Positions 5,569 to 63,611 of a stretch of DNA of 64,000 bases are shown piece after piece (within the stretch, counting starts at the first letter, position 1; each line of letters begins with the position of its first letter). Source of the DNA: Vicinamibacteraceae bacterium (GTDB lineage: Bacteria; Planctomycetota; Phycisphaerae; Phycisphaerales; UBA5793); contig WYBR01000059.1 in NCBI GenBank assembly GCA_011525805.1, positions 3,386 through 67,385 on the forward strand. The letters are read 5' to 3'. The notes under the pieces were generated by a model. The model was not told the origin of the DNA and made no database searches. It was given only the letters and a program-made list of their open reading frames with translations. The translations under genes were made by a program, and so were the position numbers.

Positions 5569-7107
5569 TCACGACGATCGGATCTGAAGATCGCGCTCGA
5601 TCACATCGAGCCGGCGGTCGAACGAGGCGTCGTTGGCGCGCAGCCGGCTGATCTTCTTGACCGCGTGCATCACCGTGGTGTGGTCGCGCCCGCCGAAGAA
5701 CCCGCCGATCTCCTGGAGGCTGTGGTTGCTGTGGCACCGCGCCAGATACATGGCGACCTGCCGCGGCAGGGTGATCGACTTGTGCCGATCCTTTGAGAGC
5801 AGGTCCGTCTGCTTGACCTCGAAGTGGCGCGCGACGGTGGAGATGATCGCCTGCACGCTTACGATCGGCGCCAGAGGCGCGGGGACCTCGCCCAGGGCCT
5901 CGCGCGCCAGTTCCGCGTCGATGGTCCGGCTTGTCGCCATCGAGAGCGCCTGGAGTTGTGTGAGGGCGCCTTCCAGTTCGCGGATGTTCGAGTCGGTGTG
6001 GTGGGCGATGTAGCACAGCACGTCGTCGGGCAGCGAAAGGCCGCGCAACTTCGCCTTGATGCGGAGGATCGCCAGCCGTGTCTCGTAGCAGGGCTTGTCC
6101 ATCCGCGCCACGAGGCCCTGCTTGAAGCGGCTGAGCAGCCGGTCCTCCAGTTTCGGGATCTCGTTTGGGGCCGCGTCTGAACTGAGGACGATCTGCTTGC
6201 CCATCTGCCACAGGCTGTTGAACGTGTGGAAGAACTCCTCCTGCGTCCGATCGTGCGCGGCGAGGAAGTGGATGTCGTCGACGACGAGGACGTCGATGTC
6301 GCGGAACTTGTGGCGGAACTCGAGCATCTGCCCCGCCTGCACCGCCTCCATGAACTGGCTGACGAACCCTTCACAGGAGACGTAGTAGATGCGGCAGCCG
6401 GGCTGGGTCGTCAAGATCGCCTGGCAGATCGCCTGGAGGAGGTGCGTCTTGCCCAGCCCCACCCCGCTGTGAATGAAGAACGGGTTGTACGCCACCCCCG
6501 GCTGCTGCGAGACCGCCACCGCCGCGGCGTGCGCCAGGCGGTTGTTCGGCCCGACGACGTAGGTCTCGAACGAGTAGTCCGGATTGATGACCATCTCGTC
6601 GTAGATGGTCCCCCAGACCGGCCCGCCGTGGCGCACCGGGGCGGGCGGCGCCGCAACCGGCGGCGGCCCCGAGGGCTCCGCCACGGACGACCCCTTTGGG
6701 CGAGGGGGCGCGGCCAGCGCGGCCGACAGCGCCGCCTGGCCATTCACCGCGCCATTGCCGTGCCCGTTGCTGGTGCCGTTGGTCGATGCGCCGGGCGCGG
6801 CCGGAGCGCCCTCGTTCACCGGGGGGTTCGCGGGAATCGTCGTCACCATCGGAAGATCCTCCGTGGAGACGAAGACCACGCTCAGCAGCATCCCCGTCAC
6901 GCTCTGCGCCGCCTCGCGGAACACCTCCATGCACTCGCGCTGCAGGTAGCGCAGATGTACGGGGTTGCACGTGCGCAGCGTGAGCAGTCCGCCGGCGAGG
7001 CCGGCCATTTCGATCGCCTCAAACCACTGCCGGCACCGGGCGGGATGATGCTTCTTGAGGTGCGCAAGGATGCCGTCCCAGATCTTTGGATCGGGGTGAG
7101 TTGCCAT
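5569..7107 (-). CDS. dnaA: Chromosomal replication initiator DnaA
   Basis: ORF 5569..7179. The ATG at 7107 gives MATHPDPKIWDGIL. Walker A GVGLGKTHLL, VVDDIHFL box, C-terminal DNA-binding region ...GGRDHTTVMHAVKKI. Confidence 0.95.
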   Translation of the reverse strand: MATHPDPKIWDGILAHLKKHHPARCRQWFEAIEMAGLAGGLLTLRTCNPVHLRYLQRECMEVFREAAQSVTGMLLSVVFVSTEDLPMVTTIPANPPVNEGAPAAPGASTNGTSNGHGNGAVNGQAALSAALAAPPRPKGSSVAEPSGPPPVAAPPAPVRHGGPVWGTIYDEMVINPDYSFETYVVGPNNRLAHAAAVAVSQQPGVAYNPFFIHSGVGLGKTHLLQAICQAILTTQPGCRIYYVSCEGFVSQFMEAVQAGQMLEFRHKFRDIDVLVVDDIHFLAAHDRTQEEFFHTFNSLWQMGKQIVLSSDAAPNEIPKLEDRLLSRFKQGLVARMDKPCYETRLAILRIKAKLRGLSLPDDVLCYIAHHTDSNIRELEGALTQLQALSMATSRTIDAELAREALGEVPAPLAPIVSVQAIISTVARHFEVKQTDLLSKDRHKSITLPRQVAMYLARCHSNHSLQEIGGFFGGRDHTTVMHAVKKISRLRANDASFDRRLDVIERDLQIRSS

Positions 7108-7295
7108 TGGGGTTTGCTTTCGTCCGTTCGGTTGTTGAGAGTCCAGGAGATCCACCAGTCGAGCGCGAGGCGGCCGCACGCTTGCCCGGCCGTGCCGCGT
7201 TTCGCTTCAACGGCACAAAGGTAATTCTTCGTCCACCGTTTGTCAACCCCGATTCGCGCGAATTGCAGAAACTCTGCGGGACACGCCAACTTTTT

Positions 7296-8638: not shown

Positions 8639-9151
8639 ATGCCTCGGCTGCCGGGTACAGATTCCAGTCCTGCCCGCGTTGTGGGAGTGGTGCTCGCCGC
8701 GACTCCGGCGATGGGGGCCCTGGGCGCTCTGGCGATGCTCGTGGCGATCGTCCGCTACGGTGGCTGGGCCGAGGCGCTGCACGATGATGATCTCCTCCTC
8801 GTTCCGGTCTGCTTCCTCATCGGTTGCGCCGTCGGAATTCTCAGTTTGCCGATCGTGGTCCCGGCGCTGGCGCGGACGGACCTGCGCTTCTCCGTGCCGG
8901 TGGTCTACGGCATCAGCGCGGTGGTGGTGGTCGTGTACGCCCTGTCGAGCCACTCGCCCTTCTACCCCCTGGACTGCGCTGTCCCCGCGTTCATCTCCGT
9001 GTGCGTTGTGAGCGCGCTCTACGGCCTGCTCTACCAGCCCCCGGAGCCACCCGCGTCGCCGGTGTGCCGCGAGTGCGCCTACGACCTCCGCGGCAACACG
9101 AGCGGCGTATGCCCGGAGTGCGGGGCCAGCGTGAACCGAGATCGCGCATGA
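8639..9151 (+). CDS. Membrane protein with C-terminal zinc ribbon
   Basis: In-frame ATG at 8639 within ORF 8534..9151. Four hydrophobic segments. C-terminus CRECAYDLRGNTSGVCPECGASV. Confidence 0.7.
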   Translation: MPRLPGTDSSPARVVGVVLAATPAMGALGALAMLVAIVRYGGWAEALHDDDLLLVPVCFLIGCAVGILSLPIVVPALARTDLRFSVPVVYGISAVVVVVYALSSHSPFYPLDCAVPAFISVCVVSALYGLLYQPPEPPASPVCRECAYDLRGNTSGVCPECGASVNRDRA

Positions 9152-9915
9152 GTCGCTCACGATCGAGTTCGTGGCGGCGGTTCATCTGCACGACGTTGCT
9201 GTGGTCGTTGGCGCTGCTGCTCATCACGAACGTCGGGTGGTCGGTGTGGTTCTCGCAACGCTTTGCGGAAGCGTACAAGGATCAGTTCATACGAGATCTG
9301 GTCGGGTATCCCGTCGATTGGCCCAAGTGGATCGAGACACAAGGCCAGCGGCGCGTGTGGATCTCCCGCAGTGACTTCGGCGGTTTCGAATCACGTTGGC
9401 TCAGTGGATTCAAGGTCACAGCGGTATCAATGGATCTGCCGGATTTCCTCTCGGCTGGAATGCCGGATCATGCTCCATCCCGATCACTTCCGCGCTGGGT
9501 CGATGTCGATCGGTGGCGAAACGATGATCGGCCACTGGCCAACGGCGTGGCACATGAAATGTACGTCGGCGTCGCGTATCCGGCGCGCCTGCTTTGGTGT
9601 CGATGGGTGATGGAGCAGGGTGCCTGGGCGATTGATCGATCCACCGCGATCAATCGAACAGATGACCCGCAACCCTGGAACGGACAGGTCGACGAGGTGC
9701 TGCCCTTCCGCCCGATCTGGACGGGACAACTGGCCACCGCAGCAATCTGGTTCGGCGCCGTCCTGGCGCTCAGGTGCCTGTGGTATCTCGTGCGCTTCGG
9801 CCTGCGCGATCTCCGACGCAGTCGCGAGTTGTGCGCGCATTGCGCCTACAACCTCCGCGGCAACACCAGCGGCGTCTGCCCGGAGTGCGGGACGCCCGCG
9901 CAGCCTCACCCATGA
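9148..9915 (+). CDS. Membrane protein with C-terminal zinc ribbon (paralogous tail)
   Basis: The ATG at 9148 overlaps the upstream TGA (ATGA). N-terminal TM LLWSLALLLITNVGWSVWF, second TM near the C-terminus, tail CAHCAYNLRGNTSGVCPECGTP. Confidence 0.75.
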   Translation: MSRSRSSSWRRFICTTLLWSLALLLITNVGWSVWFSQRFAEAYKDQFIRDLVGYPVDWPKWIETQGQRRVWISRSDFGGFESRWLSGFKVTAVSMDLPDFLSAGMPDHAPSRSLPRWVDVDRWRNDDRPLANGVAHEMYVGVAYPARLLWCRWVMEQGAWAIDRSTAINRTDDPQPWNGQVDEVLPFRPIWTGQLATAAIWFGAVLALRCLWYLVRFGLRDLRRSRELCAHCAYNLRGNTSGVCPECGTPAQPHP

Positions 9916-11369
9916 ATCATCCGCCCCACGCTCGCGAGGGCCGCTTCGTGCACCGCCTCGTTCATCGTGGGGTGCGCGTGGACGGTGTTGATGATGTCCT
10001 CGGCCGTCGCTTCGAGGCTGCGGGCCAGGGCGAACTCGGCGATGAGTTCCGTCGCCTCGGCGCCGATGAGATGCGCGCCGAGAATCTCGCCGTGCGGAAT
10101 GCTCGTGAGCAGTTTCACCAGGCCGACGTTCTCGCCCTCGGCGATCGCCTTGCCGTGCGCCTTGAGTTGGTAGGAGCCGACGTTGTAGTCCTTGCCCGCG
10201 ACGAGGCCCGCTTCCTTGAGCGCTCGCTCGGTGCGGCCGATGCTCGCCACCTGCGGATGGCAGTAGGTGCAGCCGGGGATGGAGTCGTAGTCGACGCCGA
10301 CGCAGTCGTGCCCATTCATCCGTTCGACGCAGGCGACGGCCTCCTCGCTCGCGACGTGCGCGAGCCACGGCGGGCCGATGACATCGCCGACGGCGTAGAT
10401 GCCCGGCGCGCTGGTCTGGTAGGTCGGATCCTCGACGCCGCGGTACGCGACCTTGATGTGGTCCTTGAAGGTCTCGATGTTGAGCGATGAGTCAAACAGC
10501 CCGTCGTAGCGGCCGCGCACGCCGATCGCCACGAGCACGACGTCCGCCTCGATCGTCTCGGTCTTCGCCTCGTCGCCCGTCGCGGCGATGGTGACGCTCA
10601 GACCGCCTTTGCCTTTGTCGATCTTCTTCACGACGTGGCCCGTGCGGATGTTGATGCCGGACTTCTTGAACTCGCGCTCGAGCACCTTGCTGATGTCATC
10701 ATCCTCGATGGGCAGGAGGCGGTCGAGCATTTCGACGATGGTGACCTGCGTGCCGAAGGCGTTGTAGAAGTAGGCGAACTCGACGCCGATCGCCCCGGCG
10801 CCGACGATGAGCAGGCGCTTGGGTTGCACCGCCAGCGTCATCGCTTCCTTGGCGGCGATGATGGTCGTGCCGTCGAAGGGGGCGAAGGGCAGTTCGCGCG
10901 GCACCGAGCCGGTGGCGATGAGCACCTTCGGCGCCGTCAGGGTGTGCTGTCTGCTCCCGCCGGGCTTGTCGAAGACCTGCACCTCGCAGGGCAGCGTCGG
11001 CCTGGCCGCGCGGGTGATCTTCGCGTGGCCGGCAAAGTGCGTGATCTTGTTCTTCTTGAAGAGGAAGTGGATGCCCTTGTTGAGTTGATCGGCTACGCCG
11101 CGGCTGCGGCCGATGACCTTCTCCCAGTTGTGGCTGAGGCGCTCGAACTCAAAACCCCAGTCCTTGCCGTGCTGGGCGACCTCCTTGTAGAGGTAGGCGT
11201 TCTTGAGCAGGGCCTTGGTGGGAATGCAGCCCCAGTTGAGGCACACGCCCCCGAGCAGGTCGCGCTCGATGCAGGCGACTTTCATGCCCAGTTGGGCGGC
11301 GCGGATGGCCCCGACGTACCCCCCGGGGCCGCCGCCGATGACGATGAGATCGAATTGCGTGTCCGACAT
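9906..11369 (-). CDS. lpdA: Dihydrolipoyl dehydrogenase
   Basis: The ATG at 11369 gives MSDTQFDLIVIGGGPGGY. Redox-active CLNWGCIPTK, second dinucleotide fold IVGAGAIGVE, C-terminal HAHPT. Confidence 0.93.
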   Translation of the reverse strand: MSDTQFDLIVIGGGPGGYVGAIRAAQLGMKVACIERDLLGGVCLNWGCIPTKALLKNAYLYKEVAQHGKDWGFEFERLSHNWEKVIGRSRGVADQLNKGIHFLFKKNKITHFAGHAKITRAARPTLPCEVQVFDKPGGSRQHTLTAPKVLIATGSVPRELPFAPFDGTTIIAAKEAMTLAVQPKRLLIVGAGAIGVEFAYFYNAFGTQVTIVEMLDRLLPIEDDDISKVLEREFKKSGINIRTGHVVKKIDKGKGGLSVTIAATGDEAKTETIEADVVLVAIGVRGRYDGLFDSSLNIETFKDHIKVAYRGVEDPTYQTSAPGIYAVGDVIGPPWLAHVASEEAVACVERMNGHDCVGVDYDSIPGCTYCHPQVASIGRTERALKEAGLVAGKDYNVGSYQLKAHGKAIAEGENVGLVKLLTSIPHGEILGAHLIGAEATELIAEFALARSLEATAEDIINTVHAHPTMNEAVHEAALASVGRMIHG

Positions 11370-11540: not shown

Positions 11541-11648
11541 CTACTTTCGCGGCCAGATGCGGCGCAGGTCGAGCAGGAACCAGAGGAACACGAGCACGGC
11601 CCCGGGGCCGAGGATGATCACCGCCAGCCACGTCGCCCACAGCATCAT
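11541..11648 (-). CDS. Candidate 35-aa single-TM mini-protein coupled to the symporter
   Basis: Below the track length cutoff. My translation: MMLWATWLAVIILGPGAVLVFLWFLLDLRRIWPRK*. Its ATG (11648) overlaps the symporter TGA (11647..11645). Confidence 0.4.
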   Translation of the reverse strand: MMLWATWLAVIILGPGAVLVFLWFLLDLRRIWPRK

Positions 11649-13090
11649 CGCTCATCCCTCCCCAGCAGCCATCCCGCCGCGAAGGCCAGGGCCGAGGCCG
11701 GCAGGGCGAAGAGCACCGCGTACTCGCGCCACGCCTCGAACGAACCGACGCGCCACACCATCGACTCCACCTCCACGTCATACTCGCCGTTGAGGGCGAC
11801 GGCGAGGTGATACGCCGCGTAAACGATGATCCCCGACATCGTGCTGAGCCAGCCCGCAAGCGGCGGCGGGTTGGCCAGGATCGCCCCGAGCGCCGGCACG
11901 AGCACGACCGACGCGAGGGCTCCGCTCATGAACACCCAGGCGTGGTTGATGCGGTCGAACTCGAGCGACAGCAGCGAGCCGAGCAGAAGAACGACGATGA
12001 TGCCCGCGCGCGTCAGCCAGATGAGTTGCGCGTCGGTCAGCGGTTTGCGGCGAAGGGGGCGGTAGATGTCGTAGACGATGTTGCCGCTGGCGAGCAGCGC
12101 ATAGGTGTCGGTGCTCGACATCGCCGCGGCGAGCACGCCGCCCAGAAACAGGCCGCGCAGCCCCAGCGGCAGCGTCTGCATGCACACGGCCATGAGCGCC
12201 TCGCGCCCTTCAAGATCGGCGCTGAGCAGTTGTTTCTCGACGGCGACGCGGCCGATCATCCCCACCACCGTCACGCCCCAGTCGTAGGCCGCCCAGAGAA
12301 GGATGCCGATGAGCAGCGCGCGGATGACGGAGCGGGCGTCCTTGGCCGCGAAGATGCGCTGATAGAACGCCGGCTCGACGAAGACCGTCAGCGCGCCGAC
12401 GGTCCACGCGAGGATGATGCCCCACCCCAGGCCGCCCGTGGCCGTCATGTGCTCGGCCGGGAGAATCTCGAAGGACTCGAACCCGCCGACCCACCGGAGC
12501 GCGATGGGAATGGCGATGGCGAGGGAGACGCACATGAGGACAAACTGGATAGTGTCGGAGATGGCGTCGGCCCAGAGGCCGCCCATCGCCGTGTACGCCG
12601 CGCAGATCCCCATCGAGATGAGCAGCGCGATGTGCGTCTCCCAGCCGAGCATTCTGAACATGATCGTCATGCCGGCGAGCGCGGTGATGGGCAGGCTGTA
12701 GACGAAGCAGGCCAGCGCGCCGGCGATGCGCGTGCCGACGCCGTACTGCCGTTCGAGCAGGTCGGGGAGGGTGATGCAGTCGAGTTTCTTGAGTCGCGGT
12801 GCGAGCAGGATCGCCGCGAGGATGATGCAGACGTAATACGGCCGGCTGAGCCAGAACCACGAGACCAGGCCGTAGTAATACCCCTGCTCGCTCACGGCAA
12901 AGGTGACGTCGAGTTCGTAATAGGTGCTCACCAGCGTGCAGACGAGCAGGGGCGTGGTGAGCGCCCCGCCGGCGAGGAAGTACTCCTTGAAGCCGTGAAT
13001 GCGCCGCGCCAGCAGCGCCCCGATCGCCATCATGCCGAGCATGTAGAAGGCGAGGATCGACCAGTCGAGGGTGTGGAGGGATTGGTCCAT
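11645..13090 (-). CDS. Sodium:solute symporter family transporter
   Basis: ORF 11645..13123; the ATG at 13090 gives MDQSLHTLDWSILAFYMLGMMAIG. About 13 hydrophobic segments, with the typical SSF N-terminus. Confidence 0.85.
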   Translation of the reverse strand: MDQSLHTLDWSILAFYMLGMMAIGALLARRIHGFKEYFLAGGALTTPLLVCTLVSTYYELDVTFAVSEQGYYYGLVSWFWLSRPYYVCIILAAILLAPRLKKLDCITLPDLLERQYGVGTRIAGALACFVYSLPITALAGMTIMFRMLGWETHIALLISMGICAAYTAMGGLWADAISDTIQFVLMCVSLAIAIPIALRWVGGFESFEILPAEHMTATGGLGWGIILAWTVGALTVFVEPAFYQRIFAAKDARSVIRALLIGILLWAAYDWGVTVVGMIGRVAVEKQLLSADLEGREALMAVCMQTLPLGLRGLFLGGVLAAAMSSTDTYALLASGNIVYDIYRPLRRKPLTDAQLIWLTRAGIIVVLLLGSLLSLEFDRINHAWVFMSGALASVVLVPALGAILANPPPLAGWLSTMSGIIVYAAYHLAVALNGEYDVEVESMVWRVGSFEAWREYAVLFALPASALAFAAGWLLGRDER

Positions 13091-13416
13091 CGCGGGGGCG
13101 ATTGTAGAGTGCCTGCGCGTCAAGACGGCCGCTGATGCACGCCACTAGGCCGACGCGCCGGCGGGGACGACAGACGGCGATCGGGACGGCCGTTTGCCGC
13201 CTTTCTGGGCGGCTTGACCGCGTGCGGTCCCTCGGCGGCGAGGTCGAGCCGCACCGGGGCGGGGCGGCGGGTCCAGGGACCGGCGTGGGGGGAGGACCGT
13301 ACTTCGGGGTGGTTTTCCTGCTGCACTCCCAGGAATCGGCGGTACACTCTCCAGAGGCGAAGCAGTTCACTGGGTTGGGTTGGACTGTTGTCCTCCCGAC
13401 GAAAGGCAGGTGCGCG

Positions 13417-13827
13417 ATGCAGACGTTTGCCCAGACGAAACGGTTGAAGTGGTTCTTCACGGTCGCGGCTGCGGCGATGAGCCTTGCAGCGGCCTCCGAT
13501 GCCTCCGCTCAGCCGGTGCTCACGCTGGAAGGCTCGTGTCCCGGGCCCATGCGGGCGGAGGTGCGCAACGCACCTCGCAACGTGAGTGCTTTCCTTCTCT
13601 TCGCTCGCTCCACCGGGAGTTTCCTCATCCGCGGCGGCGCATGCTGGGGCACGACGCTGGGGCTCAGTTCGCAGGGACTTCGACAGGTCGGTGAGGCCAT
13701 CACTGATGGAACAGGATTCGCTTCTTTCGAGGGCAATGTTGGGCGGGCCGCCTGTGGGGGATACTTACAGATCCTCATGGGTGCTGGCGGCGGGTGCCAA
13801 ACGAGCAATGTCGTCAGGATCGAGTAG
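13417..13827 (+). CDS. Small secreted Cys-containing protein
   Basis: In-frame ATG at 13417. Signal peptide MQTFAQTKRLKWFFTVAAAAMSLAAASDASAQ. The mature part aligns with the C-terminal domain of 39422..41152 (GSCPG...C.GT.L.L...AAC.G...Q...C.TS). Confidence 0.6.
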   Translation: MQTFAQTKRLKWFFTVAAAAMSLAAASDASAQPVLTLEGSCPGPMRAEVRNAPRNVSAFLLFARSTGSFLIRGGACWGTTLGLSSQGLRQVGEAITDGTGFASFEGNVGRAACGGYLQILMGAGGGCQTSNVVRIE

Positions 13828-13891
13828 GCGGTTCATGTATTGCGGGAGCGTTCTGAGGCTTCGAGGCAGTCTGCTGCTGGCGTCGGATTCG

Positions 13892-15593
13892 ATGGAGGGA
13901 CATGCGATGGAGCGAAGTACCGTTGGTCGCGATCGCAGCGTGAGTCTCAGAGTGGCTTTCATTCTTTTCACAAGCGCGCTCGGTGCCACCGCGTTCGGTC
14001 AAGAGTGTGGCCGCCGCGTGGACTTCGAGTTCGAGGCGCACTCCACCACGCTGGAGAATCAGGCAGATTGCGCGATTGCCGTCGGACCGAGCCACATTCT
14101 CACGACGACGAACTGGGGACGGCGTGTGTGGGATCGCAATGGTGGGCTGTTGGTTTCGGAGACGCTTGAGCAGTTCTTTGGGTTCCCCGTGTTCTCCGAT
14201 GCGGTCGTCGCATTTGATCCAGACTCGGCTCGGTTCTTCGTGCTGGTCATGCGCAATACGGTCGATTCGCTGGCGCTTGCCGTGTCGCACAACTCCGATC
14301 CCGTCGACCGCAACAACTGGGACTTCCACCAGCCGCCGGCGCTTCCTGTCTTGCCTGATTACCCGCACATGAGCGTCGGCCCACAGCAAGTCTTCTTCAG
14401 TTGGCAACGCGCTCACATCCCGACGAAAGGAACGGCCGAGATCGCCTGGGCCGACAAAGCCGCGCTCCTCAACGGACAGTTGCCGCCGGTCCAGCGGCAC
14501 TTCATCGATCAGATTCCCAACCAGGACAACACCTACTGGCGCGCCATCGGCTGCTTCAGGATGTATGAGCAGGTCTCGCCGTCCATGGGCTACTTCATCA
14601 CCGACTCCCACACGATCACCGGCGAGAACAATTGGGTGCGCCTGTACGCCCTGGACGCCGCCACCAACACGCTCTATGAGCCTTTCGACCTGACCGTGCC
14701 GTACTACAGGACCGCGCCCTGGGGGCATCAACATGCCCGGAGGCACCATCAACTGCATGCCGTTCTTCAAGTTTCCCGTGTATCGGAACGGATCGGCGTG
14801 GGTCGTTCACGCCATCGGCGACGATGAGCCGAACACGGCCAAACTGCGCTGGCACCAGATTGCCATGAACGGCTGGCCGCTGAGCGGCAACATCCCGACG
14901 CTCGTCCAGTCGGGAACCATCGATCCGGATGACGCTTCCGCCAGCGCTCTCTTTCCGGCGATTCACGTCGATGACGCCGGCAATATGGCGATCACCTACA
15001 ACGAATGCTCTCCGACGCAGCACATCGCCATCCGGCGAACCATCCGCAAGCACTACGATGCCCCGGGTACGACTCGCGCGCCGATCACCGTGCGCGAGAG
15101 CACGGCATCGCCAGTGAATGCGGCCTGGGCGGACTACAGCCAGATGGACGAGGATCCAGCAAACCCCGGCGTGATGTGGAGCCATCTTGAATGGTTCGGC
15201 ATCAACGCCGTGACGCCCGATCTCGTTGAAAAGAGGCGAACGTCCGTCGTGCGCACAGACCTGAACAAATCGCTCACGTTTGAGATTGGCCCGGAAGGTC
15301 CGATCCGGCGCGGGGTGACTTCCGTTCACCTCGAAACGCGCGGCGCCGCACCTGGGGGGCTGGTCAGGTGGTTTTACTCAACCACCGGCTGCGGTTCGAC
15401 CACGATCCTGCCTCTGCAGGTGACATTGGAGATCGGGAATGCGGTGTTCTTGGCGCAGGCTCTGGCGGATGCTGAAGGAACAGCCGTCAAGAACTTCACG
15501 ATGCCCGCTGATTTCCCGCTGGGCGAGGTGTGGGCGCAGTCCGCTGAGTATCAGAACACGTCGGAGGTCGTGAAGCGGATCATCGTGGACTGA
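13892..15593 (+). pseudogene. Secreted protein gene split by a +1 frame change in a G5 run
   Basis: ORF 13586..14827 has in-frame ATGs at 13892 and 13907 and a signal-like VSLRVAFILFTSALGATAFGQ. ORF 14733..15593 is one frame over. Removing one G from g14721-14725 reads ...YYRTAPWGINMPGGTINCMPFFKF continuously. Confidence 0.6.
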
Positions 15594-15610
15594 GGGTGGT
15601 ACTGGCTCGA

Positions 15611-17653
15611 TCACTTCGTCGATCGCTTCCTGCGAAGCCCGCCGCTCACAGTCGGCTGTGTTGCGTCGGCGAAGAGGTTTTCGGGCGAGGCGTCGGGATT
15701 TTCAGCCGCGCCGCCTTCGTCATCACCCGCATCGCCGGTGAGATTGATCGGCGCGCGGCGTTCTTCGCAGATGATCACGCCGTCATCGTCAGCCAGTCGC
15801 CCGCCGTCGTCCACGACGTTGCCGGAATCGTCGAGGACGTAGTCCGCCTCGGCGGTGCGGCGCTGCGCCTGCTTCATCAGCGCGTCGTAGAGCGCCTGGC
15901 CGTCGGTTCCGGTGATGGCTTCGCAGGCCCGGCTGATCTCGCCGATGTAGCGCAGGAAGGCGCCGCGCCGCTCGCCCTCGCGGCGCATCTTGCGCCGGCG
16001 GTTCAAATACGTCTGCATCTTGCGCCCGCATTCCTGAAGCGCCAGGCGCATCTCTTTGCGGATCTCGTCGTAGTCGGCGATGGCCTCTTTGCTCTCGCTC
16101 GTGAATGGCACCCAGACCGAGGCCATGTGGATCATCACCACGAGGGGGCCGACGGGCAGGGCGTTCTTGGGCTGCGTCAGGCCGTAGTTGCGCCAGTTCG
16201 TCTCGACGACCGCCTTGAAGGACGAGCACGCCGACTGCTGGTAGAGCAGCGGCACGCGATTGGCGAAGCGGATGACGCGCGCGGGGTCTTCGGCGGGGAG
16301 GTCACCGCCGAAGGCGATCGCGGCCTCGATCACGAAGGGCCTTCCGCGGTAGACCGCCGCAGGGCGCGTGCTGGCGGCGTAGAACTCCGCCTTCACTTCC
16401 TTGAGCAGGCCCGCCAGCAGCGTGCGCGTGCCGATGGGCTGCACGCAACTGGTCGGCGGGGCCATGATCTTCACTTCCTGAATCGCCTTGTAGAGGCGCT
16501 CGGCATCAGCATGGCCGGTCTGCTTGATCCAGGTGCGATCCGTGAGCCCTGCCTTGGCGCATATCTCCTTGGCGACACTGGGACCGACTCGGCAGAACTC
16601 CTTCTTGAAGAACGCGCCCAGTTGCGTCGTCTCCGTGCGCTCGAGCATCTGAATGAGCGTGCCCAGTTCGATGCCGCGCGGATGCGGCTTGATCTCTTCC
16701 GCCTCCGGGGGCAGGTCTTCGACGGTGCGGTTGTACTCGAATCGCTCATTCGTCGGCGCGATGTAGGTGAGGCGCGCGTGCGGGTTGGCGATGGCGGTCT
16801 GCTCGAGGTATTCGTCGATGCTCTGGCGTCCCTTGAGGTACTTGCCTTCGAGTTCGATGGTGACCTGCGTGCCGTGGCCCTCGGCGAAGAGCGGATCATC
16901 CTCGGGGTGCTCCGTTTCACTGACGACGTCGGCCTTGTTCTTGCTCGTGTCCATCTTGAGCAGGACTTCGTGGGCGGGCTTGTTTCTCTTCGTCTTGCTG
17001 ATGATGAGCACGGGCTTGCCGGTCGTCATCAGGCCGTACATGCCCGCGGCGGAGATGCCGATGCCCTGCTGGCCGCGGCTCATCTTGAGGCGGTGGAACT
17101 TCGAGCCGTAGAGGAGTTTGCCGAAGATGTTGTCGATCTGCTTGCGGACGATGCCGGGCCCGTTGTCGCGGATGGTGACCTTGAAGCGGCTCTCGTTGGT
17201 CTGGAGGATCTCGACGTGGATGTCGGGGAGGATGCCCGCCTCTTCGCAGGCGTCGAGGGAATTGTCCACAGCCTCTTTGACCGTCGTGAGCAGGGCTTTG
17301 CGCGGATTGTCGAAACCGAGCAGGTGGCGGTTTTTGGCGAAGAACTCCGAGACGCTGATCTCGCGCTGCTTCGCGGCCATGGACTCGGCGGTGGCGCGCT
17401 GGCGGGGCTTGCCTTTCGAGGAGGGGGTAACCGCAGAGGTCGCAGAGGGGGAATCCGATGGGTCGGGCTGCGAATCTGATGTCGCTGCGCTCGCTGCCTG
17501 GGCCCTCCTGGTCTCCTTTTTGCTCTTCTCTGCGCTCGCAGCACTCTCGGCGGTGAATTCCTCTTCTCCCGCCAGACGGAGGCGCGGGGCTTTGGTGGGC
17601 TTCTTCGATGGCATGGCGGAATCGAGCGGGTTGGTCGCGAACAGGGAAGTCAT
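15611..17653 (-). CDS. top6B: DNA topoisomerase VI subunit B (GHKL ATPase)
   Basis: 680 aa. Bergerat-fold boxes [21 protein letters not shown] and [15 protein letters not shown], followed by H2TH-like and transducer regions. Low-complexity basic N-terminus and acidic C-terminal tail. Confidence 0.88.
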
Positions 17654-17790
17654 GAATCAAGCCCTCCATGGCTTGCGGTGCGGCGCGGACGTGCGAGGCG
17701 CCGGCGCCCGGCAGCGCCCCGAGGGTCGGCGCGCCACGTTCTGCATCGGCACAACGGGCAAGGATAGTCGAGCGATCAGGGGGTGGCGTA

Positions 17791-20454
17791 TCAGCGCGTT
17801 GCCGCGCGGCCGTGCCGCCACGCGAGCATCGCCGGCAGGACGACGAGGGAGGCGAGCAGGCCCGCTGCGCTGCCGATGAGCATGAGCAGGCCGAGGCTGG
17901 CCAGACCGCGGTGCGAGGCGGTGAGCAGCGAGCCGAAGCCGATCATCGTTGTCATCGCGGTGACGAAGACGGCGCGGCGCGTCGAGCCGAGGTCGAGGGC
18001 CTCGCGCCCCTCTGCCTGCTGCTCGCGGCAGCGGCGGATGAGATGGATCCCGCTGTCCACGCCGATGCCGATGAGAATGGGCACGGCGAAGAAGTTGGCG
18101 AGGTTGAACTGAACCCCCAGCGCCCCCATCGCCTCGACCATCCATACCATGCCCACCAGCAGCGGCGCCATCGCCAGCAGCGCCTCGCGCCAGTTCCGCA
18201 GGTCGATCAGAATCAGCGCAAAGACCGCCGCCAGCGCCAGCATCGCCGCCTTCACGAACGCCCGGCGCATCTCCCTGAGCGATTCATACTGCGTCATTGG
18301 CACGCCGGTCGCATCAGGCTCGACGAGCCGCACCGCCTCGACGAAGCGCGCCATCGGCTCGAACTCCCAGACGTTTTCGCGCGGATGGATCGTAACGAGC
18401 AGCACCCCGCCGGGCGAGATGAGCCGGTCGCGCAGGGCCGCGGGAATCGCCTCGCGCAGGGGCATCTTCGACCCGAGGTGGATCCACATGAGCGCCTGCC
18501 GCGCTTCGTCGATCGCGCCCTTGACGCGCTGGGCCATCTCCCGCGCCTCTTCCTCCGTGCCGTGCAGCGCGTCGCGCACCTGCGCCCCGGCCGTGGCGAG
18601 GTGGAACATCATCTCCGACTCCTGCGGCGCCGCCGAAGCGGCGAGAGCGCCAAGGCGCTCGATCGCTTCGTCGAGTTTCACGGACGCCGTTCTCATCGCC
18701 TCGACGTCCGGGCCGACAAAGAACGAGGGATCGACGAGCGAGTCGCCTTCGCGGCGCGCCACTTCCTCGTCGAGCCGCACGCTCCACGCGAACGAAATCG
18801 GCTCGCCGCGCTGCACGACGTCGAGCACGCTGCCGACGCGCCCGATTGTTTCGCTCAGCCCGGCGCGCTGAGCGATCTCGCGCACGTCGTCCAGGCCATC
18901 GACTTTGACGGCGGCGAACCACGTCTCCGCCGAGTCGTCGAGAATGCGATGCTCCCACTCGACTGATTCGAGGCCGCGGGCCTGGAGGTCGAGCAGGTTG
19001 CCGTCGAAGCGCACCCGGGCCGCGAAGGGCAACAGCGCGGCGGTGGCCGCGGCGCACGCGGCGAGCACCCAGCCCGGGCGCGTGGTGACTGTCTTCCACA
19101 TGCGCCCGCCCGCGGCGGGAATCGCCTCGACGAGCGTCGCGGCCGGCCGGCCCCTGCCCCAGCGCCGCTCGTAGATCATGAGCAGGGCCGGAAGCACGAC
19201 GGTCATCGACACCAGGCACAGGAGCAGCCCGCTGCCGGCGATGAAGCCGAGTTCGCGCAGCCCCTGAAACTCGGTGAAGAGCGACATGAGAAACGCCGCG
19301 CTGGACGTCACCGCTCCGGTCACGTTGCCGCGACCCGTCGTGCCGACGGCGTGCTCGATGGCTCTCTCGACGCCTTCGCTGCGCAGAAACTCCTTGTAGC
19401 GCGCGATGAGGTGGACGCCGAAGTCGATCCCCACGCCGACGAGCACGAGGGTGAAGACGATGCTCAGCAGATTGAGTTGGCCGATGACGAGTGTCGTGAG
19501 GCCGAAGGTCCACCCGATGCCGACGCCCAGCGCCAGCAGCGCCAACAGCGAGCGCCACACCCCGCCGATGACGGTGATGAAGAGGATCGCCACGAGCGCG
19601 ACGGCGAGGATCGAGGCGCGCATCATGTCGCGCTCCGTCGTGGTCATCTCGTCGGCTTGGAGGACGGGTTTGCCGGTGAGTCCCATGTCGAGGTCCGGGA
19701 AGGCGGCACGGGCCTCGTCGAGCACAGCGCGGATGCGGCGCACCGGCTCGGCGATCACCGCCATCGTGCCGTAGTCCTTCACCGGCATGATGAGAATGAA
19801 GTGCAGTTCGCCCGAGTCGGAGGTGAGGTACTGCGACTTGAGGCCGTCGCCGGGATGCAGCGGCTGCGCGGGCGGCCCCCACGCGCCGGGCGAAGTGATG
19901 AGCCGCGCCAGCCAGACCGCCGCCGCGCCGAGGCGCGCGCGCTCGGCGGCGGGCATGAGCGCGCCCTCGCGCATGACGCGGTTGAGCAGGTCTGTCGCCT
20001 CCTCCATCAGGGCGGCGGGGCTGCTCTTGAGCATCAGCGGCGCGATGGCGTCGCTGAGCGCATCGAGCGCCGCCGCGTCTTCGTCGCTCATCGACCGGCT
20101 GGCGAGGAGCAGTTGCTCGCGCGGCGTGATGGACCAGTGCACCGCCGGCAGGCCCTCGATGGCGCTGAGCCGCGCGCCGATGAACTCGATGCACTCTTCG
20201 GCGCGCGGCGTGTGGCCGTTGTCGGCGACGACGACGTAGAGATACTCAAGGTCGCCGAATTCGTTGAGGAAAGCGTCATACTTCTCTTTGTAAGGCCGGT
20301 CGGCGCCGATAAGGTCATCGGTGTCGGCGTTGAGTTGCAGCGACGAAGCGGCATAGAGGCCGCAGAGCACAGCGCTGACCACGCCAAGCGCCGCGACGAC
20401 AAGCGCCCGCCGGCACGCGAATCTCGCCACCCATCGCAACCAACGTTCGAGCAT
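17791..20454 (-). CDS. RND-superfamily/MMPL-type exporter (HpnN-like)
   Basis: 887 aa. Two hydrophobic bundles, each after a large soluble loop. Duplicated motif LVGVGIDFGVHLIARY / LIGIGVDSGIHLIRRC. Confidence 0.85.
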   Translation of the reverse strand: MLERWLRWVARFACRRALVVAALGVVSAVLCGLYAASSLQLNADTDDLIGADRPYKEKYDAFLNEFGDLEYLYVVVADNGHTPRAEECIEFIGARLSAIEGLPAVHWSITPREQLLLASRSMSDEDAAALDALSDAIAPLMLKSSPAALMEEATDLLNRVMREGALMPAAERARLGAAAVWLARLITSPGAWGPPAQPLHPGDGLKSQYLTSDSGELHFILIMPVKDYGTMAVIAEPVRRIRAVLDEARAAFPDLDMGLTGKPVLQADEMTTTERDMMRASILAVALVAILFITVIGGVWRSLLALLALGVGIGWTFGLTTLVIGQLNLLSIVFTLVLVGVGIDFGVHLIARYKEFLRSEGVERAIEHAVGTTGRGNVTGAVTSSAAFLMSLFTEFQGLRELGFIAGSGLLLCLVSMTVVLPALLMIYERRWGRGRPAATLVEAIPAAGGRMWKTVTTRPGWVLAACAAATAALLPFAARVRFDGNLLDLQARGLESVEWEHRILDDSAETWFAAVKVDGLDDVREIAQRAGLSETIGRVGSVLDVVQRGEPISFAWSVRLDEEVARREGDSLVDPSFFVGPDVEAMRTASVKLDEAIERLGALAASAAPQESEMMFHLATAGAQVRDALHGTEEEAREMAQRVKGAIDEARQALMWIHLGSKMPLREAIPAALRDRLISPGGVLLVTIHPRENVWEFEPMARFVEAVRLVEPDATGVPMTQYESLREMRRAFVKAAMLALAAVFALILIDLRNWREALLAMAPLLVGMVWMVEAMGALGVQFNLANFFAVPILIGIGVDSGIHLIRRCREQQAEGREALDLGSTRRAVFVTAMTTMIGFGSLLTASHRGLASLGLLMLIGSAAGLLASLVVLPAMLAWRHGRAATR

Positions 20455-20707: not shown

Positions 20708-20808
20708 TCGCCTCGATGCCTTCAGCCCTCGGCGTCTTGGAGCCTTGGGGCTGGCCTTTCGTCTTGCCTTGCACTTGCCGTGGCGGCGAATCGATCCTCT
20801 TATCCGTC

Positions 20809-22326
20809 ATGGAACCAGCGGCCGCATCGCCCCGGACCGCCGACCGCCCCGCCCGCCGCGGCCGGGTGCGCAAGCGCTATCTCATCCTCCTCGCCATGGT
20901 GGTGCTCCTGGGCTGGGTGGGGTGGCAGGTGTACGGCGTCCTCACCGCGAAGCCCGGCCCGCTCATCGACTACACCGAACAACTCATCGCCCTGAGCGCC
21001 CGTTACCAGCCCGAGGGGGAGAACGGCTGGCCGGCGCTCGTCGCGGCTCTGGAACGCTTTGAGGCGATTGGCGTGCCGGATGTGGAGGGTTGGCCGACGG
21101 AATCCCGTGACCGCATCCTTCGCTTTGATCTGGTGCATGGCGGTGTGTTCTCTCAAGATCGCTTGAAGTACGTTCTGGCTTATCTGGAGCGCATCGAGCG
21201 CTCTGGCGTACTGGAGGAGATAGACGCGGCGCTTGCGGCTCGCCGCTTTGTACGAACGGAGTTTCCCGGCGCCGAAGGGGGATTCTTTGATCTTACGTTG
21301 CCGGAACTGGCGAGGGCGCGCACGTTTGCACGCGCAAGGGCCGCCTCGATTCGCATCGCGGCTGAGGCGGACGACTGGACGGCGGTCGAGCAGGCATGGA
21401 GTGAACTGCTTGAACTGGCGTCCGCTCTGTCGCACGACCCGATGCTGCTCAGTCACCTGGTCGCGCAGGCGATCAGTGTTCTCGCCGCTAAAGAACTCAA
21501 CTGGGTCATGGTTGAGCGCGAAGTAGATGAAGCAATCGCACAGAGACTGCTTCAGTCGATGGGCGACGGTGAGATTCTCGCCCCGCTCGAACTGGCGCTC
21601 GAAGGCGAACGGTTGATGTTCTATGACCTCATTCAACGTACGTTCACCGACGATGGGGGAGGCGACGGAACGCTGATGATCGATGCGCTGGCCAGGGTCG
21701 GGGATGTGGAGAACACCTTTGTGACCGGGGCCGAGGGGATAAAGCCGCTTGCAACTCTCGCCGGATCGATGTTCGCAGGGCGCGCCGAGACTCTGCGTGA
21801 GTTCGATCGATTCATGGATGCCGCCGTGCGACAGACACGAGGATCACGCGAGGAGGCCGAAGCCGATCTGGAGTTCCTGCGGGACTTCCAGAGCGAGTTA
21901 TCCAACCGGCAGATCTTCCTGAGATTGCTCCTGCCTGTACTGGACCGGCCGCTGGAGATGAGAAGAGTCTGGCGCTCGTGGATGAACGCGACTCGAATCC
22001 TCATTGCGATCGAACTGTACGAAGCTCGACACGGTTCTCTCCCCGCGTCGTTGGATGATCTCGTTCCCGAGTGCCTGACGGAGATTCCGAGGGACGAAGT
22101 CTCCGGCCTGCCCTTCTCGTATGTGCTTCGAACACCGACGCCGGATGATCCTCGCAGGCTTCTTCTCTATTCCATCGGCCTTGATCATCAAGACAACGGT
22201 GCGGCGGAGACATCGCTGGCACCGCCGGATTCAGTTCTCCTGCTCCGAACAGCGCCGGAGTCTCGCAACGGCTATGACTACATCTTCAACCGCCTCCGCG
22301 ATCCGTTGCCAGAGGTTGAAAATTGA
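20809..22326 (+). CDS. Hypothetical N-terminally anchored protein
   Basis: In-frame ATG at 20809. TM YLILLAMVVLLGWVGWQVYGVL followed by about 470 aa of helical sequence. C-terminal LLLYSIGLDHQDNG motif. No family recognised. Confidence 0.7.
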   Translation: MEPAAASPRTADRPARRGRVRKRYLILLAMVVLLGWVGWQVYGVLTAKPGPLIDYTEQLIALSARYQPEGENGWPALVAALERFEAIGVPDVEGWPTESRDRILRFDLVHGGVFSQDRLKYVLAYLERIERSGVLEEIDAALAARRFVRTEFPGAEGGFFDLTLPELARARTFARARAASIRIAAEADDWTAVEQAWSELLELASALSHDPMLLSHLVAQAISVLAAKELNWVMVEREVDEAIAQRLLQSMGDGEILAPLELALEGERLMFYDLIQRTFTDDGGGDGTLMIDALARVGDVENTFVTGAEGIKPLATLAGSMFAGRAETLREFDRFMDAAVRQTRGSREEAEADLEFLRDFQSELSNRQIFLRLLLPVLDRPLEMRRVWRSWMNATRILIAIELYEARHGSLPASLDDLVPECLTEIPRDEVSGLPFSYVLRTPTPDDPRRLLLYSIGLDHQDNGAAETSLAPPDSVLLLRTAPESRNGYDYIFNRLRDPLPEVEN

Positions 22327-24401: not shown

Positions 24402-24629
24402 ATGCCTAAGGCGAAACGGTACACAGTCAGCGATGGGCGGCTCGTTCTGACGCTTGAGGAAGCGGAGCGGGGGTGGTACGCGGTCTCTTCGCCGATGGAA
24501 CCGGCCCTACAGACTCAGGCCAGGAGCATCCCTGAGGCGTTTGAGATGGCTCGGGATGCCATGAACGAACTGCGCAAGTACCGCGAATCGAAGTCCGCCC
24601 GCCGGAGCGGACGCCGAGCCAGCGCGTAG
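24402..24629 (+). CDS. Short HicB/DUF1902-like antitoxin-fold protein
   Basis: In-frame ATG at 24402. MPKAKRYTVSDGRLVLTLEEAERGWYAVSSPMEPALQTQARSIPEAFEMARDAMNEL fits the HicB N-terminal-domain pattern. No DNA-binding domain. Confidence 0.6.
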   Translation: MPKAKRYTVSDGRLVLTLEEAERGWYAVSSPMEPALQTQARSIPEAFEMARDAMNELRKYRESKSARRSGRRASA

Positions 24630-24824
24630 TCAGATGCCACTCGGACGAGGGATTCCGAGCTGTTTGGCGATGCCGCGAGCCGTGGGGTTGGGTATCTCAG
24701 TGTGGCGCGCCACGGTCGATTCACGGCCATTCGCAGGGTTGCACCAGACTTCGTGACGTCTGCCTTCGCGAGCGATTTCACACCCGTGTTTTTTGAGGTG
24801 GGCCACAAGATCACGCTTTCTCAC
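24630..24824 (-). CDS. hicA: HicA-family mRNA interferase toxin
   Basis: 64 aa: (GTG)RKRDLVAHLKKHGCEIAREGRRHEVWCNPANGRESTVARHTEIPNPTARGIAKQLGI. YcfA/HicA pattern including the conserved His. Confidence 0.8.
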   Translation of the reverse strand: MRKRDLVAHLKKHGCEIAREGRRHEVWCNPANGRESTVARHTEIPNPTARGIAKQLGIPRPSGI

Positions 24825-25588
24825 GTCTTGCCCTCCTCCTCGTCCGTCAGGACGTCCTTCATCAGGTCAAGCCACCCTCTGATCCGACTAAAGTCAGACT
24901 CTGAGATGGGCCGTGAAATCCTGAGTATTGCCGCACGGCCACGAGAAAGAGGGATGCTGAACGCCTCGCTCTCCTGCCCGGATTGAGGCGTTTGGTCGCC
25001 TGTCTGTCCCGAGTTGCTCCATGCATGCTGACCGTTCGGATGCGGCTCTGACTCCCGGCCAGAGCCCTCGCTTGAACCGGTCGTGGTGGGAACCTCACTC
25101 AGGACACCATGTTGAAGCAGTCGCGCGTACTCGACGCTTCGTCGAAAGCATGCCGCCACATCGGGCGCGGTTTTGGATTGCACGCCGAAGTCGTGAATCA
25201 GGCTTCCCTCCAGTTTGGACGGAAGTCCCTTCCCGAAGAACTTCTGGCACAAATCCCGGTATAGCGCGGGTGATCGCGCCGCTTCCGCCAGCGCACTCAC
25301 ACGGTCCGAATCGTCCCGCGGGTACAAAATTCTCTGCCCCAGCGGCGACAGGCGGTACGAGTTGCGTCCACGATCGAGAAGTCCAAAGTGAGTCAACGAT
25401 CCGACTTTTGAGTTCACGATGCCGCTGACGGCCTTGTGTCCAAGGGCCTCGGCCAAGGCTGCTCTGGCGAAGGGTCCGTCGCCAAGACTCTCGGAAATCC
25501 TCTTCAAGAACCCCACAGCGGTTTCCAGATCGAACTGGGGGCTGCGCCGGCCCCTCGACTGCGAGTCTTCGCTTTCTTCGCTGGCCAT
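24821..25588 (-). CDS. Unknown 255-aa protein coupled to hicA (winged-helix-like segments)
   Basis: ATG at 25588, preceded by GGAG. Its TGA overlaps the hicA GTG (GTGA at 24821-24824). Contains GSLTHFGLLDRGRNSYRLSPLGQRIL, a Ser/Gly/Gln-rich linker, and the C-terminal tail FSIPLSRGRAAILRISRPISESDFSRIRGWLDLMKDVL. Confidence 0.7.
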   Translation of the reverse strand: MASEESEDSQSRGRRSPQFDLETAVGFLKRISESLGDGPFARAALAEALGHKAVSGIVNSKVGSLTHFGLLDRGRNSYRLSPLGQRILYPRDDSDRVSALAEAARSPALYRDLCQKFFGKGLPSKLEGSLIHDFGVQSKTAPDVAACFRRSVEYARLLQHGVLSEVPTTTGSSEGSGRESEPHPNGQHAWSNSGQTGDQTPQSGQESEAFSIPLSRGRAAILRISRPISESDFSRIRGWLDLMKDVLTDEEEGKT

Positions 25589-32422: not shown

Positions 32423-32518
32423 CCCGGCCGGCGCGGGCCGGTCGATTGTGCCGCGCGGCAGTCGAATAATCGCCCTGCGGTGGCCCGCCTGAAGTTCAGA
32501 TCGTCGCTGGTTCTCAAG

Positions 32519-33394
32519 ATGCGTCTTCGGGCCTTCTGGCTGCGCACGATCGAGTCGGGCCGGGACCCGGGCATCGAGATCAAGCCCTTCATCCTCACGG
32601 GCCCGCCGCGGAGCGGGACCAGCCTGCTCACGGCACTGCTGACGCGCAAGGGCAACGTGCTGGTCGCCAACGAGCCGGTGGTGGTGGGCGATCCGCTGCT
32701 GGCTCGGGGCAAGCCGGCGCGCCTCCTGCGGGGCTACATCCACTCGCTGGCGCGGCAGGCGGTGCAGCGCGGCACCATGCCCACCAAGGTCGATCGGCGC
32801 GATCCCTCGCGCCCCACCACCGACACCGCGCACCACGGCGCCACCCGCCGCGACGTCGCCGTCCGCATCGACCGCGCGCGGCCGCTGTGCGTCGGCGTCA
32901 AGCACCCCATCTCCTTCATGGAGTACCTCGGCGAACTCGTCCATGGCTGGTCGCAACTCAAGGTCATCGTCCTGGCGCGCGACCCCGTGCTGACGATTCG
33001 CTCGTGGCGCGAGACGACCTACGGCTGGCAGCCGGGTCTCGACGATCCGGGCAAGGGGCTCTGGCGGCGCATGTACGCCGAGATTCCCGCCGACGTTTCT
33101 CCTCTCGAAAAGCGAGCGCACCTTTGGAACCTCCTCGTCGAGCGCGGCGAGAAGTACGCCGCGAGCCATCCTTCGCAGGTGCGCCTGCTGCGCTACGAGA
33201 CGCTCCTGGCCGATCCCGCGGCCACGATGCGCGCCCTGTTCGCACACATCGGCGCCGACCGGCCCGAAGAGCCCATCGACGTCTCCGACGTGCGGCCGCA
33301 GGAGCACGCCTCCTACAAGGGCTTCAGCGAAGACGAGGTGCAGATGATCCAGCGCCTCTGCGGCCCAACCGACCGCCGCACCCGCGGGGCGTAA
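32519..33394 (+). CDS. Sulfotransferase-family protein
   Basis: ATG at 32519 (the track start at 32480 is a GTG). PAPS-binding-type loop LTGPPRSGTSLL. Later RDP..T..SW region. Confidence 0.65.
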   Translation: MRLRAFWLRTIESGRDPGIEIKPFILTGPPRSGTSLLTALLTRKGNVLVANEPVVVGDPLLARGKPARLLRGYIHSLARQAVQRGTMPTKVDRRDPSRPTTDTAHHGATRRDVAVRIDRARPLCVGVKHPISFMEYLGELVHGWSQLKVIVLARDPVLTIRSWRETTYGWQPGLDDPGKGLWRRMYAEIPADVSPLEKRAHLWNLLVERGEKYAASHPSQVRLLRYETLLADPAATMRALFAHIGADRPEEPIDVSDVRPQEHASYKGFSEDEVQMIQRLCGPTDRRTRGA

Positions 33395-46740: not shown

Positions 46741-46871
46741 CCCTGGTCCTTTCACACTTGTTTTCTCGAGGTGTTTGCCGCTGACTGTCGCCACTGCGGA
46801 GAACGCTAAGGGAGGATCCCGCGGAAGCGGCTCGTCGGGACGCTAGGGGCCGGATGGCCCCGAGGCAAGAT

Positions 46872-61345: not shown

Positions 61346-61658
61346 CAACTCAGGCCGGGGAAGCGGTCCGATGTGTGGCGCCCCCAATTGATTCGCCGCA
61401 CCAGAGAGGGTGCCACACAGCATCGCGCCAGCGTGCTGTGTGCGAGCGAGCAACGACGAACGAACGGAGGAGACACGAGCGTCCTGGCCCTTCGCGCTGC
61501 ACTCTCGCCCGAGGCGGGTCGATGCATGGCACGAGCCCCGGACACCCGTCCCTCTCTCCAGTCGCGCCTTGGGGTACACCCCCGATTGATCGCCTCGGCC
61601 ACGGGGTTCGTCGGCGGCGCGGGGCCGCTCGCCGCACCGCGCGCTATCGTGAGCCTGC

Positions 61659-63546: not shown

Positions 63547-63611
63547 TATAGTTGGGGCGGCGCGGCGTCCGGACGCGGTCAGCGCCGCCGATCGCTTCGC
63601 TCGGGAGGCTG

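Follow-up and report, generated by a model that had tools for sequence, protein, structure and literature searches.

The window analyzed here, a stretch of 64,000 nucleotides taken as a whole, encodes a canonical bacterial topoisomerase VI B subunit (Top6B), whose partner gene top6A lies elsewhere on the same chromosome after the operon was split by insertions and rearrangement. We place the probability of this reading as a whole at about 93%. The apparent orphan status of top6B arises because a 64-kb view was taken of a genome with a split operon, and a partner gene missing from a window is weak evidence for its absence from the genome.

The top6B locus in the window

The database proteins closest to the window Top6B, at 70 to 88% identity, carry the name Top6B and come from MAGs assigned to Phycisphaerales or Planctomycetota, and judging by these matches the organism is a Phycisphaerales (Planctomycetota) bacterium. 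In sister genomes the NCBI annotation of Top6B is correct. The window represents ordinary chromosomal DNA, with housekeeping genes that also include an aspartyl/asparaginyl-type tRNA synthetase, Fpg, and RmuC. The genes that bear on the top6B locus are as follows.

17791..20454, minus strand: MMPL/RND-type exporter gene (Pfam MMPL), directly upstream of top6B with a 137-bp gap
15611..17653, minus strand: top6B coding sequence, DNA topoisomerase VI subunit B (ORF of 680 aa plus stop codon; profile models, 2q2e_B alignment, dN/dS)
13736..15593, plus strand: convergent gene in the cassette inserted between top6B and the SSF gene, frameshifted and with no Pfam match
11645..13123, minus strand: sodium:solute symporter (SSF) gene (Pfam SSF), located between top6B and top6A in relatives
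5569-7206, minus strand: dnaA, 8.4 kb from top6B
45745-46842, minus strand: parB, a housekeeping gene

Both neighbors named in the earlier sequence-only reading, a frameshifted gene and an RND/MMPL exporter, are in place on either side of top6B. The convergent gene is broken by one additional G (+1) in a G-run, with G-run indels at 14721 and 15354. The cassette to which it belongs is approximately 2.4 kb long and on the opposite strand; it is present in loci L008, L103, and L018 (relatives are given by locus number) and absent in L006, L019, and L020, where the SSF gene directly follows top6B. On this distribution the cassette is a lineage-specific insertion. The MMPL gene adjoins top6B in L008, L103, L017, and L018 as well. 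A scan of positions 15300 to 18000 found no promoter-like sites, and terminator-like matches there were at background level.

The gene order of the window runs from MMPL through top6B, the cassette, SSF, and a small ORF to a pyridine-nucleotide oxidoreductase gene and, further on, dnaA. This order is repeated in two MAGs (L008 and L103) that are approximately 98% identical in DNA and therefore conspecific, and the MMPL-top6B-cassette part is also found in two further species (L017 and L018).

Identity and conservation of the Top6B protein

Features within and immediately before the gene are listed below in order from the start codon side.

17662..17667, minus strand: Shine-Dalgarno-like GGAGGG, 8 nt upstream of the M1 ATG
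17393..17653, minus strand: N-terminal low-complexity extension, residues 1 to 87 (the 2q2e_B alignment begins at residue 88)
16868..17284, minus strand: GHKL (Bergerat) ATP-binding domain core, residues 124 to 262 (Pfam HATPase_c_3 and HATPase_c; motifs; E127, N131, D163-G167, G194-G199)
16472..16714, minus strand: H2TH region, residues ~314 to 394 (continuous M. mazei alignment; sub-threshold NFACT_N; helical model)
15974..16459, minus strand: transducer domain, residues 399 to 560, including WRNY at 487 to 490 (PF09239, 2.4e-58)
16088..16090, minus strand: codon of the switch lysine K522 (aligned to S. shibatae K427; invariant in 37 homologues)
15614..15844, minus strand: C-terminal tail, residues 604 to 680 (conserved motif, acidic stretch, LF motif, terminal basic patch)

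Judged by its sequence, the window protein is a bona fide Top6B and the family assignment is unambiguous. The NCBIfam model NF003218 ("DNA topoisomerase VI subunit B") scores 677.1 bits against a cutoff of 274 and covers model positions 3 to 513 of 539, and TIGR01052 scores 516.6 bits against a cutoff of 380.7. Pfam detects Topo-VIb_trans (PF09239) at residues 399 to 560 (2.4e-58), together with HATPase_c and HATPase_c_3. The closest solved structure is Methanosarcina mazei Top6B (2q2e_B; E=1.6e-154), with 51% identity over 473 aligned positions in an unbroken alignment of residues 88 to 565.

The Bergerat ATPase signature claimed from the letters alone was located in full within the 680-aa ORF. 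The N-box motif at residues 126 to 135 contains the predicted general-base Glu127 and the Mg-binding Asn131, and is followed by the G1 motif DNGPGI (163 to 168) and the G2 motif GQQGIG (194 to 199). The H2TH and transducer regions, also part of that claim, are both seen. The H2TH region (residues ~300 to 395) aligns without gaps to 2q2e_B, has a sub-threshold NFACT_N match at 314 to 394 (E=1.9e-4; 20.8 bits against a cutoff of 31), and is helical in the AlphaFold model (pLDDT ~77 to 90 at residues 331 to 390). The transducer domain carries WRNY at residues 487 to 490 and, within SESKEAIAD, the lysine K522, which corresponds to the switch lysine K427 of S. shibatae Top6B in a phmmer alignment to 2zbk_B; the catalytic lysine that the sequence-only reading had proposed to look for is thus accounted for. 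Across 37 Phycisphaerales Top6B sequences, E127, N131, D163, G165, G167, G194-G199, and K522 are invariant.

The AlphaFold model, built from a 37-sequence alignment, has a mean pLDDT of 58 and is unreliable for the transducer at 401 to 528, and its use was limited to tail disorder and a Foldseek sanity check. Because the model is poor at 401 to 528, the transducer and switch-lysine assignment is drawn from sequence alone. In the Foldseek comparison against the PDB, the best 16 matches to the model are all Top6B chains, with other GHKL proteins far behind.

The Bergerat motifs behind the first identification are common to all GHKL proteins, and a different type IIB or GHKL member (the B module of Topo VIII, a meiotic TopoVIB-like protein, MutL, or a histidine kinase) could in principle have been misread as Top6B. 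The profile searches move the protein to no such family: the Top6B equivalog models are exceeded by a wide margin, whereas the MutL and histidine-kinase models reach only E values of ~1e-2 to 1e-4, far under their cutoffs, and the alignment to a solved Top6B is continuous across GHKL, H2TH, and transducer. In topoisomerase VIII a single polypeptide contains both the A and the B module, and its gene is found on plasmids or integrated mobile elements (PMC7671362). This family was rejected, since the window protein has no fused 5Y-CAP or Toprim domain (Pfam) and the gene sits in a chromosomal context among housekeeping neighbors (dnaA 8.4 kb away, parB, tRNA synthetase). Meiotic TopoVIB-like proteins (MTOPVIB/TOPOVIBL) are eukaryotic, with a degenerate GHKL-like fold and no H2TH (PMC11302465), and were rejected on the intact GHKL motifs, the H2TH region, and the bacterial lineage. 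We regard the chance of such a misassignment as close to negligible.

The gene is also intact and constrained. Relative to the conspecific copy, the window top6B has 45 synonymous and 18 nonsynonymous differences (dN/dS 0.12) and is under purifying selection. A frameshift in the neighboring gene and the repeated rearrangement of the locus would fit a decaying remnant, in which top6B became dispensable after separation from top6A and is drifting toward a pseudogene. However, such decay is highly improbable given the uninterrupted 680-codon ORF, the invariance of all catalytic residues, the low dN/dS, and the fact that no fewer than two other species (L017 and L018) keep the split arrangement with intact genes.

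The claim of a low-complexity basic N-terminal extension held in part: the extension exists (residues 1 to 87), but it is only marginally basic, with 14 K/R versus 11 D/E, and S, T, A, P, and G account for 53 of 91 residues. PGAP places the start in the conspecific MAG at Met92, giving a 589-aa protein (P0242). The M1 start of the window gene is nonetheless credible because it is preceded by GGAGGG at a distance of 8 nt and by an in-frame stop at -6 relative to the M1 ATG, and because the ribosome-binding site and N-terminal motif are conserved in relatives. The ACGGAGGG element before the start is kept in L008, L017, L018, L006, and L020, and elements similar to ACGGAGGG precede the top6B start in the distant L049, L072, and L092; the N-terminal motif MTSLFA..PSKK..RLRLA is conserved in close relatives only. 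On this evidence the extension appears to be real. AlphaFold pLDDT is <50 at residues 1 to 89 and 620 to 680, and residues 1 to 87 are predicted to be disordered.

The acidic C-terminal tail described earlier is likewise present and needs one correction. Its last 77 residues hold 18 D/E versus 8 K/R, yet they terminate in the basic RRKRSTK. The order of conserved motif, acidic stretch, invariant LF, and K/R-rich end is kept across Phycisphaerales, and the tail is a lineage trait and not peculiar to the window gene.

The Top6A partner and the loss of linkage

As stated in the sequence-only reading, the 64-kb window holds no top6A. A tblastn search of the window with Phycisphaerales Top6A gave a best match at E=1.6, and Pfam detected no TP6A_N, Toprim, or Topo_VI_alpha among the ~49 window ORFs scanned, namely, those with coding-like codon-position G+C. 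A stretch of 64 kb without a Top6A, Toprim, or 5Y-CAP ORF would suit a true orphan, a Top6B whose organism has lost top6A and which functions by itself or together with some other DNA-cleaving protein, and the evidence for Top6A comes from conspecifics and shared sequencing runs rather than from the window's own assembly. That evidence nevertheless makes a true orphan very unlikely. Conspecific genomes with identical local gene order carry intact top6A on the same contig, a 99%-identical Top6A occurs in the same runs as the exact window Top6B, and the Top6A protein is conserved and intact. No gene for an alternative partner was seen adjoining top6B.

In the conspecific genome GCA_023382955.1, contig JAHDXM010000001.1 (431,920 bp) carries top6B at 286,018-287,787 on the plus strand and an intact top6A (P0137, 396 aa) at 151,607-152,797 on the minus strand. 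The two genes are 133 kb apart on opposite strands; the conspecific evidence comes from MAGs, in which mis-binning is possible, and this separation lies on a single contig. P0137 has TP6A_N and Toprim domains and the LRGMFY and DCD motifs. PGAP and NCBI name it (MCL4195970.1) "DNA topoisomerase IV subunit A," and because of this naming Top6A can be overlooked when the partner is searched for by name. In a second conspecific genome, GCA_048499635.1, the top6B contig is 1,413,340 bp long, and the P0137 protein is also recorded on a contig of 1,413,340 bp.

A Top6A variant from the window's own population, P0135, differs from P0137 at 3 residues (99% identical), and its locus has 99.3% DNA identity to the conspecific top6A locus. 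Runs SRR14787579 and SRR14787580 yielded both P0135 and the exact window Top6B; P0135 was also assembled from four SRR365191xx runs, and the exact window Top6B from SRR36519099 and SRR36519113. The link between the window Top6B and Top6A is therefore based on conspecific MAGs and on shared runs, of which two are identical and the rest belong to the same series. In NCBI records, the longest contig is 69,599 bp for the exact window Top6B and 29,938 bp for P0135. At the species level, a cognate Top6A (5Y-CAP plus Toprim) is encoded in the genome, as seen on the conspecific contig and in the shared runs.

The B subunit is 98.2% identical to its conspecific counterpart and 84% identical to that of the L006 clade, and the corresponding values for the A subunit are 99.2% and 88%; the two subunits diverge in step. 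The stand-alone status implied for this B subunit does not survive the intact conspecific top6A 133 kb away and the 99%-identical Top6A in the same sequencing runs. The sequence-only reading had itself allowed that a top6A elsewhere in the genome with matching phylogeny would indicate a split operon, and this is the pattern found.

We surveyed top6B-top6A adjacency by scanning one genome per species with a fused query of Top6A and the window Top6B and then locating both genes at each locus. The survey comprised 80 species-representative loci among the matches listed, where the best Top6B match is 88% identical to that of the window. Among these listed matches, top6A lies <1.6 kb downstream of top6B on the same strand at 62 of 80 loci and 2 to 6.5 kb downstream on the same strand at 7; 4 have no top6A within 10 kb downstream, and 7 are cut by contig ends, leaving 73 that could be judged. 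The same-strand order of B then A, with top6A 0.1 to 6.5 kb downstream, was therefore found at 69 of 73 judgeable loci among the matches listed, in agreement with the earlier claim that top6A normally adjoins top6B. For one of the four split loci, JABFGK010000001.1 (2.86 Mb), Top6A is recorded on a contig of 2.86 Mb. The top6B-top6A operon is the rule in Phycisphaerales and has been split more than once, on independent occasions. Operon linkage is absent from the 64-kb window; such linkage is typical of Top6B and not defining.

The closest relatives illustrate how linkage was lost in this clade. In L005 (Top6B 79% identical to that of the window), top6B and top6A are adjacent. In L007 (82%), a single nucleotidyltransferase (MNT) antitoxin gene separates them, and in L006 (84%), six genes intervene, consisting of an SSF gene, a 41-aa ORF, two unknown genes, and an MNT/HepT pair. 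The window and L006 share a block of top6B, SSF, and small ORF, and synteny ends after the small ORF. The window SSF gene, which is 79% identical to the L006 gene sited between top6B and top6A, belongs to the last syntenic block before the breakpoint. The downstream neighbors of top6A, an ANTAR response regulator, a Tricorn/PD40 protein, and an integrase-family gene, are kept across these genomes. We suggest that an ancestral top6B-top6A operon was separated by insertions and at least one large rearrangement in the window species and its closest relatives.

The opposite-strand, 133-kb geometry in the conspecific genome is compatible with an inversion, and an inversion may have been the exact event that separated top6B from top6A. 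A single clean inversion was rejected as the full history. The sequence upstream of top6B also departs from that in L006 and L007, and more than one rearrangement event is therefore needed.

It is also conceivable that the unlinking was not neutral. In this clade, top6B would have moved to an origin-proximal position 8.4 kb from dnaA while top6A was kept with its ANTAR neighbor, which could have brought separate regulation and new interactions of the tails. If so, B-subunit dosage might, for example, be tied to replication while A-subunit expression is under antitermination control, and the clade-specific disordered N-terminal extension and the acidic/basic C-terminal tail may mediate new interactions. 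We consider this very unlikely.

Function and comparison with known systems

Under the preferred reading, that of a canonical B subunit with top6A elsewhere on the chromosome, the enzyme would work as described for the family. A point that weighs against this reading is that unlinked subunit genes offer no inherent means of balancing the amounts of the two subunits. In topoisomerase VI, ATP-bound B subunits clamp the transported duplex and signal via the transducer, and the A subunits cleave the gate duplex (Corbett & Berger structures; Wendorff & Berger 2018, PMC5922973; Allen & Maxwell 2024, PMC11302465). By analogy, two window B subunits would dimerize on ATP via their GHKL domains and trap a DNA duplex, the signal would reach two Top6A subunits by way of the H2TH and transducer domains and the switch lysine K522, and the Top6A pair would cut and then reseal a second duplex. 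The resulting A2B2 enzyme would relax supercoils and decatenate chromosomes; both the activity and the decatenase role of the window Top6B are inferred from the family. A published survey detected topoisomerase VI in PVC bacteria, two Phycisphaerae families (Sedimentisphaeraceae and Anaerohalosphaeraceae) among them, and found these bacteria to be without topoisomerase IV (PMC11302465). Because the surveyed PVC bacteria are without topoisomerase IV, decatenation and relaxation of positive supercoils are the likely role, and topoisomerase VI probably takes the place of the missing enzyme.

Earlier work already documents topoisomerase VI in PVC bacteria, Phycisphaerae among them, and the window Top6B is a known enzyme in a lineage known to have it. 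Only the gene order is unusual, and local rearrangement accounts for it. The significance beyond correct annotation is small; what the survey adds is the operon rule and the repeated splits in Phycisphaerales.

One of the closest known counterparts is MCL4196106.1 (P0242) of the conspecific GCA_023382955.1, which belongs to the same 90% cluster as the window Top6B and is ~98% identical. Its gene has the same flanking genes, and its neighborhood is likewise without top6A. It differs in the Top6B start (Met92; 589 aa) and in the length of G-runs in the neighboring gene.

The M. mazei Top6B (PDB 2Q2E chain B; cryo-EM 9O0G and others) shares with the window protein the GHKL-H2TH-transducer order, the ATP-binding motifs, the KGR(R) loop, the WxxY stalk motif, and the switch lysine. 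In contrast, the window Top6B has an N-terminal extension of ~87 aa that is predicted to be disordered, and its C terminus carries a short, conserved acidic motif together with a basic tail where M. mazei Top6B has an Ig-like domain. Bacterial Top6B proteins are stated to be without the Ig-like domain (PMC11302465).

The PVC topoisomerase VI of Pirellula staleyi, Thermogutta terrifontis, Sedimentisphaera, and Anaerohalosphaera (Allen & Maxwell 2024, PMC11302465), a study in which the gene order of the top6 subunits is not covered, is the same enzyme in the same phylum. The window case differs from these in coming from a different order, the Phycisphaerales, and in that its subunit genes are unlinked.

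Chromosomal setting and variable segments

The following genes of the window bear on its chromosomal position:

5569-7206, (-), dnaA
45745-46842, (-), parB

Because dnaA and parB both lie within it, the window is probably an origin-proximal part of the chromosome; the distance from dnaA to top6B, which is upstream of it and shares its strand, is 8.4 kb. Three sulfotransferase-family genes also fall within the 64 kb:

32423-33394, (+), sulfotransferase-family gene
61653-62513, (+), sulfotransferase-family gene
62590-63627, (-), sulfotransferase-family gene

One further reading frame is located between the MMPL exporter and aminotransferase genes:

20716-22326, (+), 536-aa ORF

This ORF had no Pfam match and is missing from L008, the corresponding locus of a conspecific MAG; the region is therefore a strain-specific insertion of ~1.9 kb. 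Two segments (~9100-9990 and ~24500-25500) align at only 58-74% identity, against 96-100% for the rest of the alignment.

Frame differences in the convergent neighbour of top6B

13736-15593, (+), convergent neighbour gene of top6B, with G-runs at 14721 and 15354

Compared with two conspecific MAGs, the window carries one additional G in each run (G5 versus G4 at 14721, and G6 versus G5 at 15354). In the window, the gene loses its reading frame at the first G-run, and the MAG copies appear to end prematurely at the second; G4 combined with G6 would be required for an intact gene of ~619 aa. In the G-run region, the Logan assembly L001 and the window share 100% identity. These differences could reflect homopolymer assembly error, real pseudogenization, or slipped-strand switching.

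Subunit tails and the top6A neighbourhood in relatives

15614-15844, (-), C-terminal tail of Top6B, compared with Top6B of loci L005-L092

In all Phycisphaerales Top6B proteins examined (the window and L005-L092), the C-terminal region has one shared layout: the motif [23 protein letters not shown], then an acidic stretch, the dipeptide LF (invariant), and finally a K/R-rich terminus. In the same genomes, the N terminus of Top6A is basic and of low complexity. Between top6B and top6A, close relatives carry the following insertions:

L006 15145-15790 and L007 12200-12508, MNT/HepT-type (NTP_transf_2/HepT-like) toxin-antitoxin pair or MNT half

Their presence there suggests that insertions recur in the gap separating the two genes of the operon. 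Directly 3' of top6A, an ANTAR-domain response regulator gene is found in every Phycisphaerales locus examined (L005, L006, L007, L009, and L097), a pairing that is kept even where top6B has relocated and that may represent a regulatory link or mere conserved synteny.

The NCBI name for Top6A/Spo11-family proteins P0128, P0137 (from a conspecific genome), P0150, and others, "DNA topoisomerase IV subunit A," is misleading: a name-based Top6A search would miss proteins so labelled, and the label could imply topoisomerase IV (ParC) in genomes without any.
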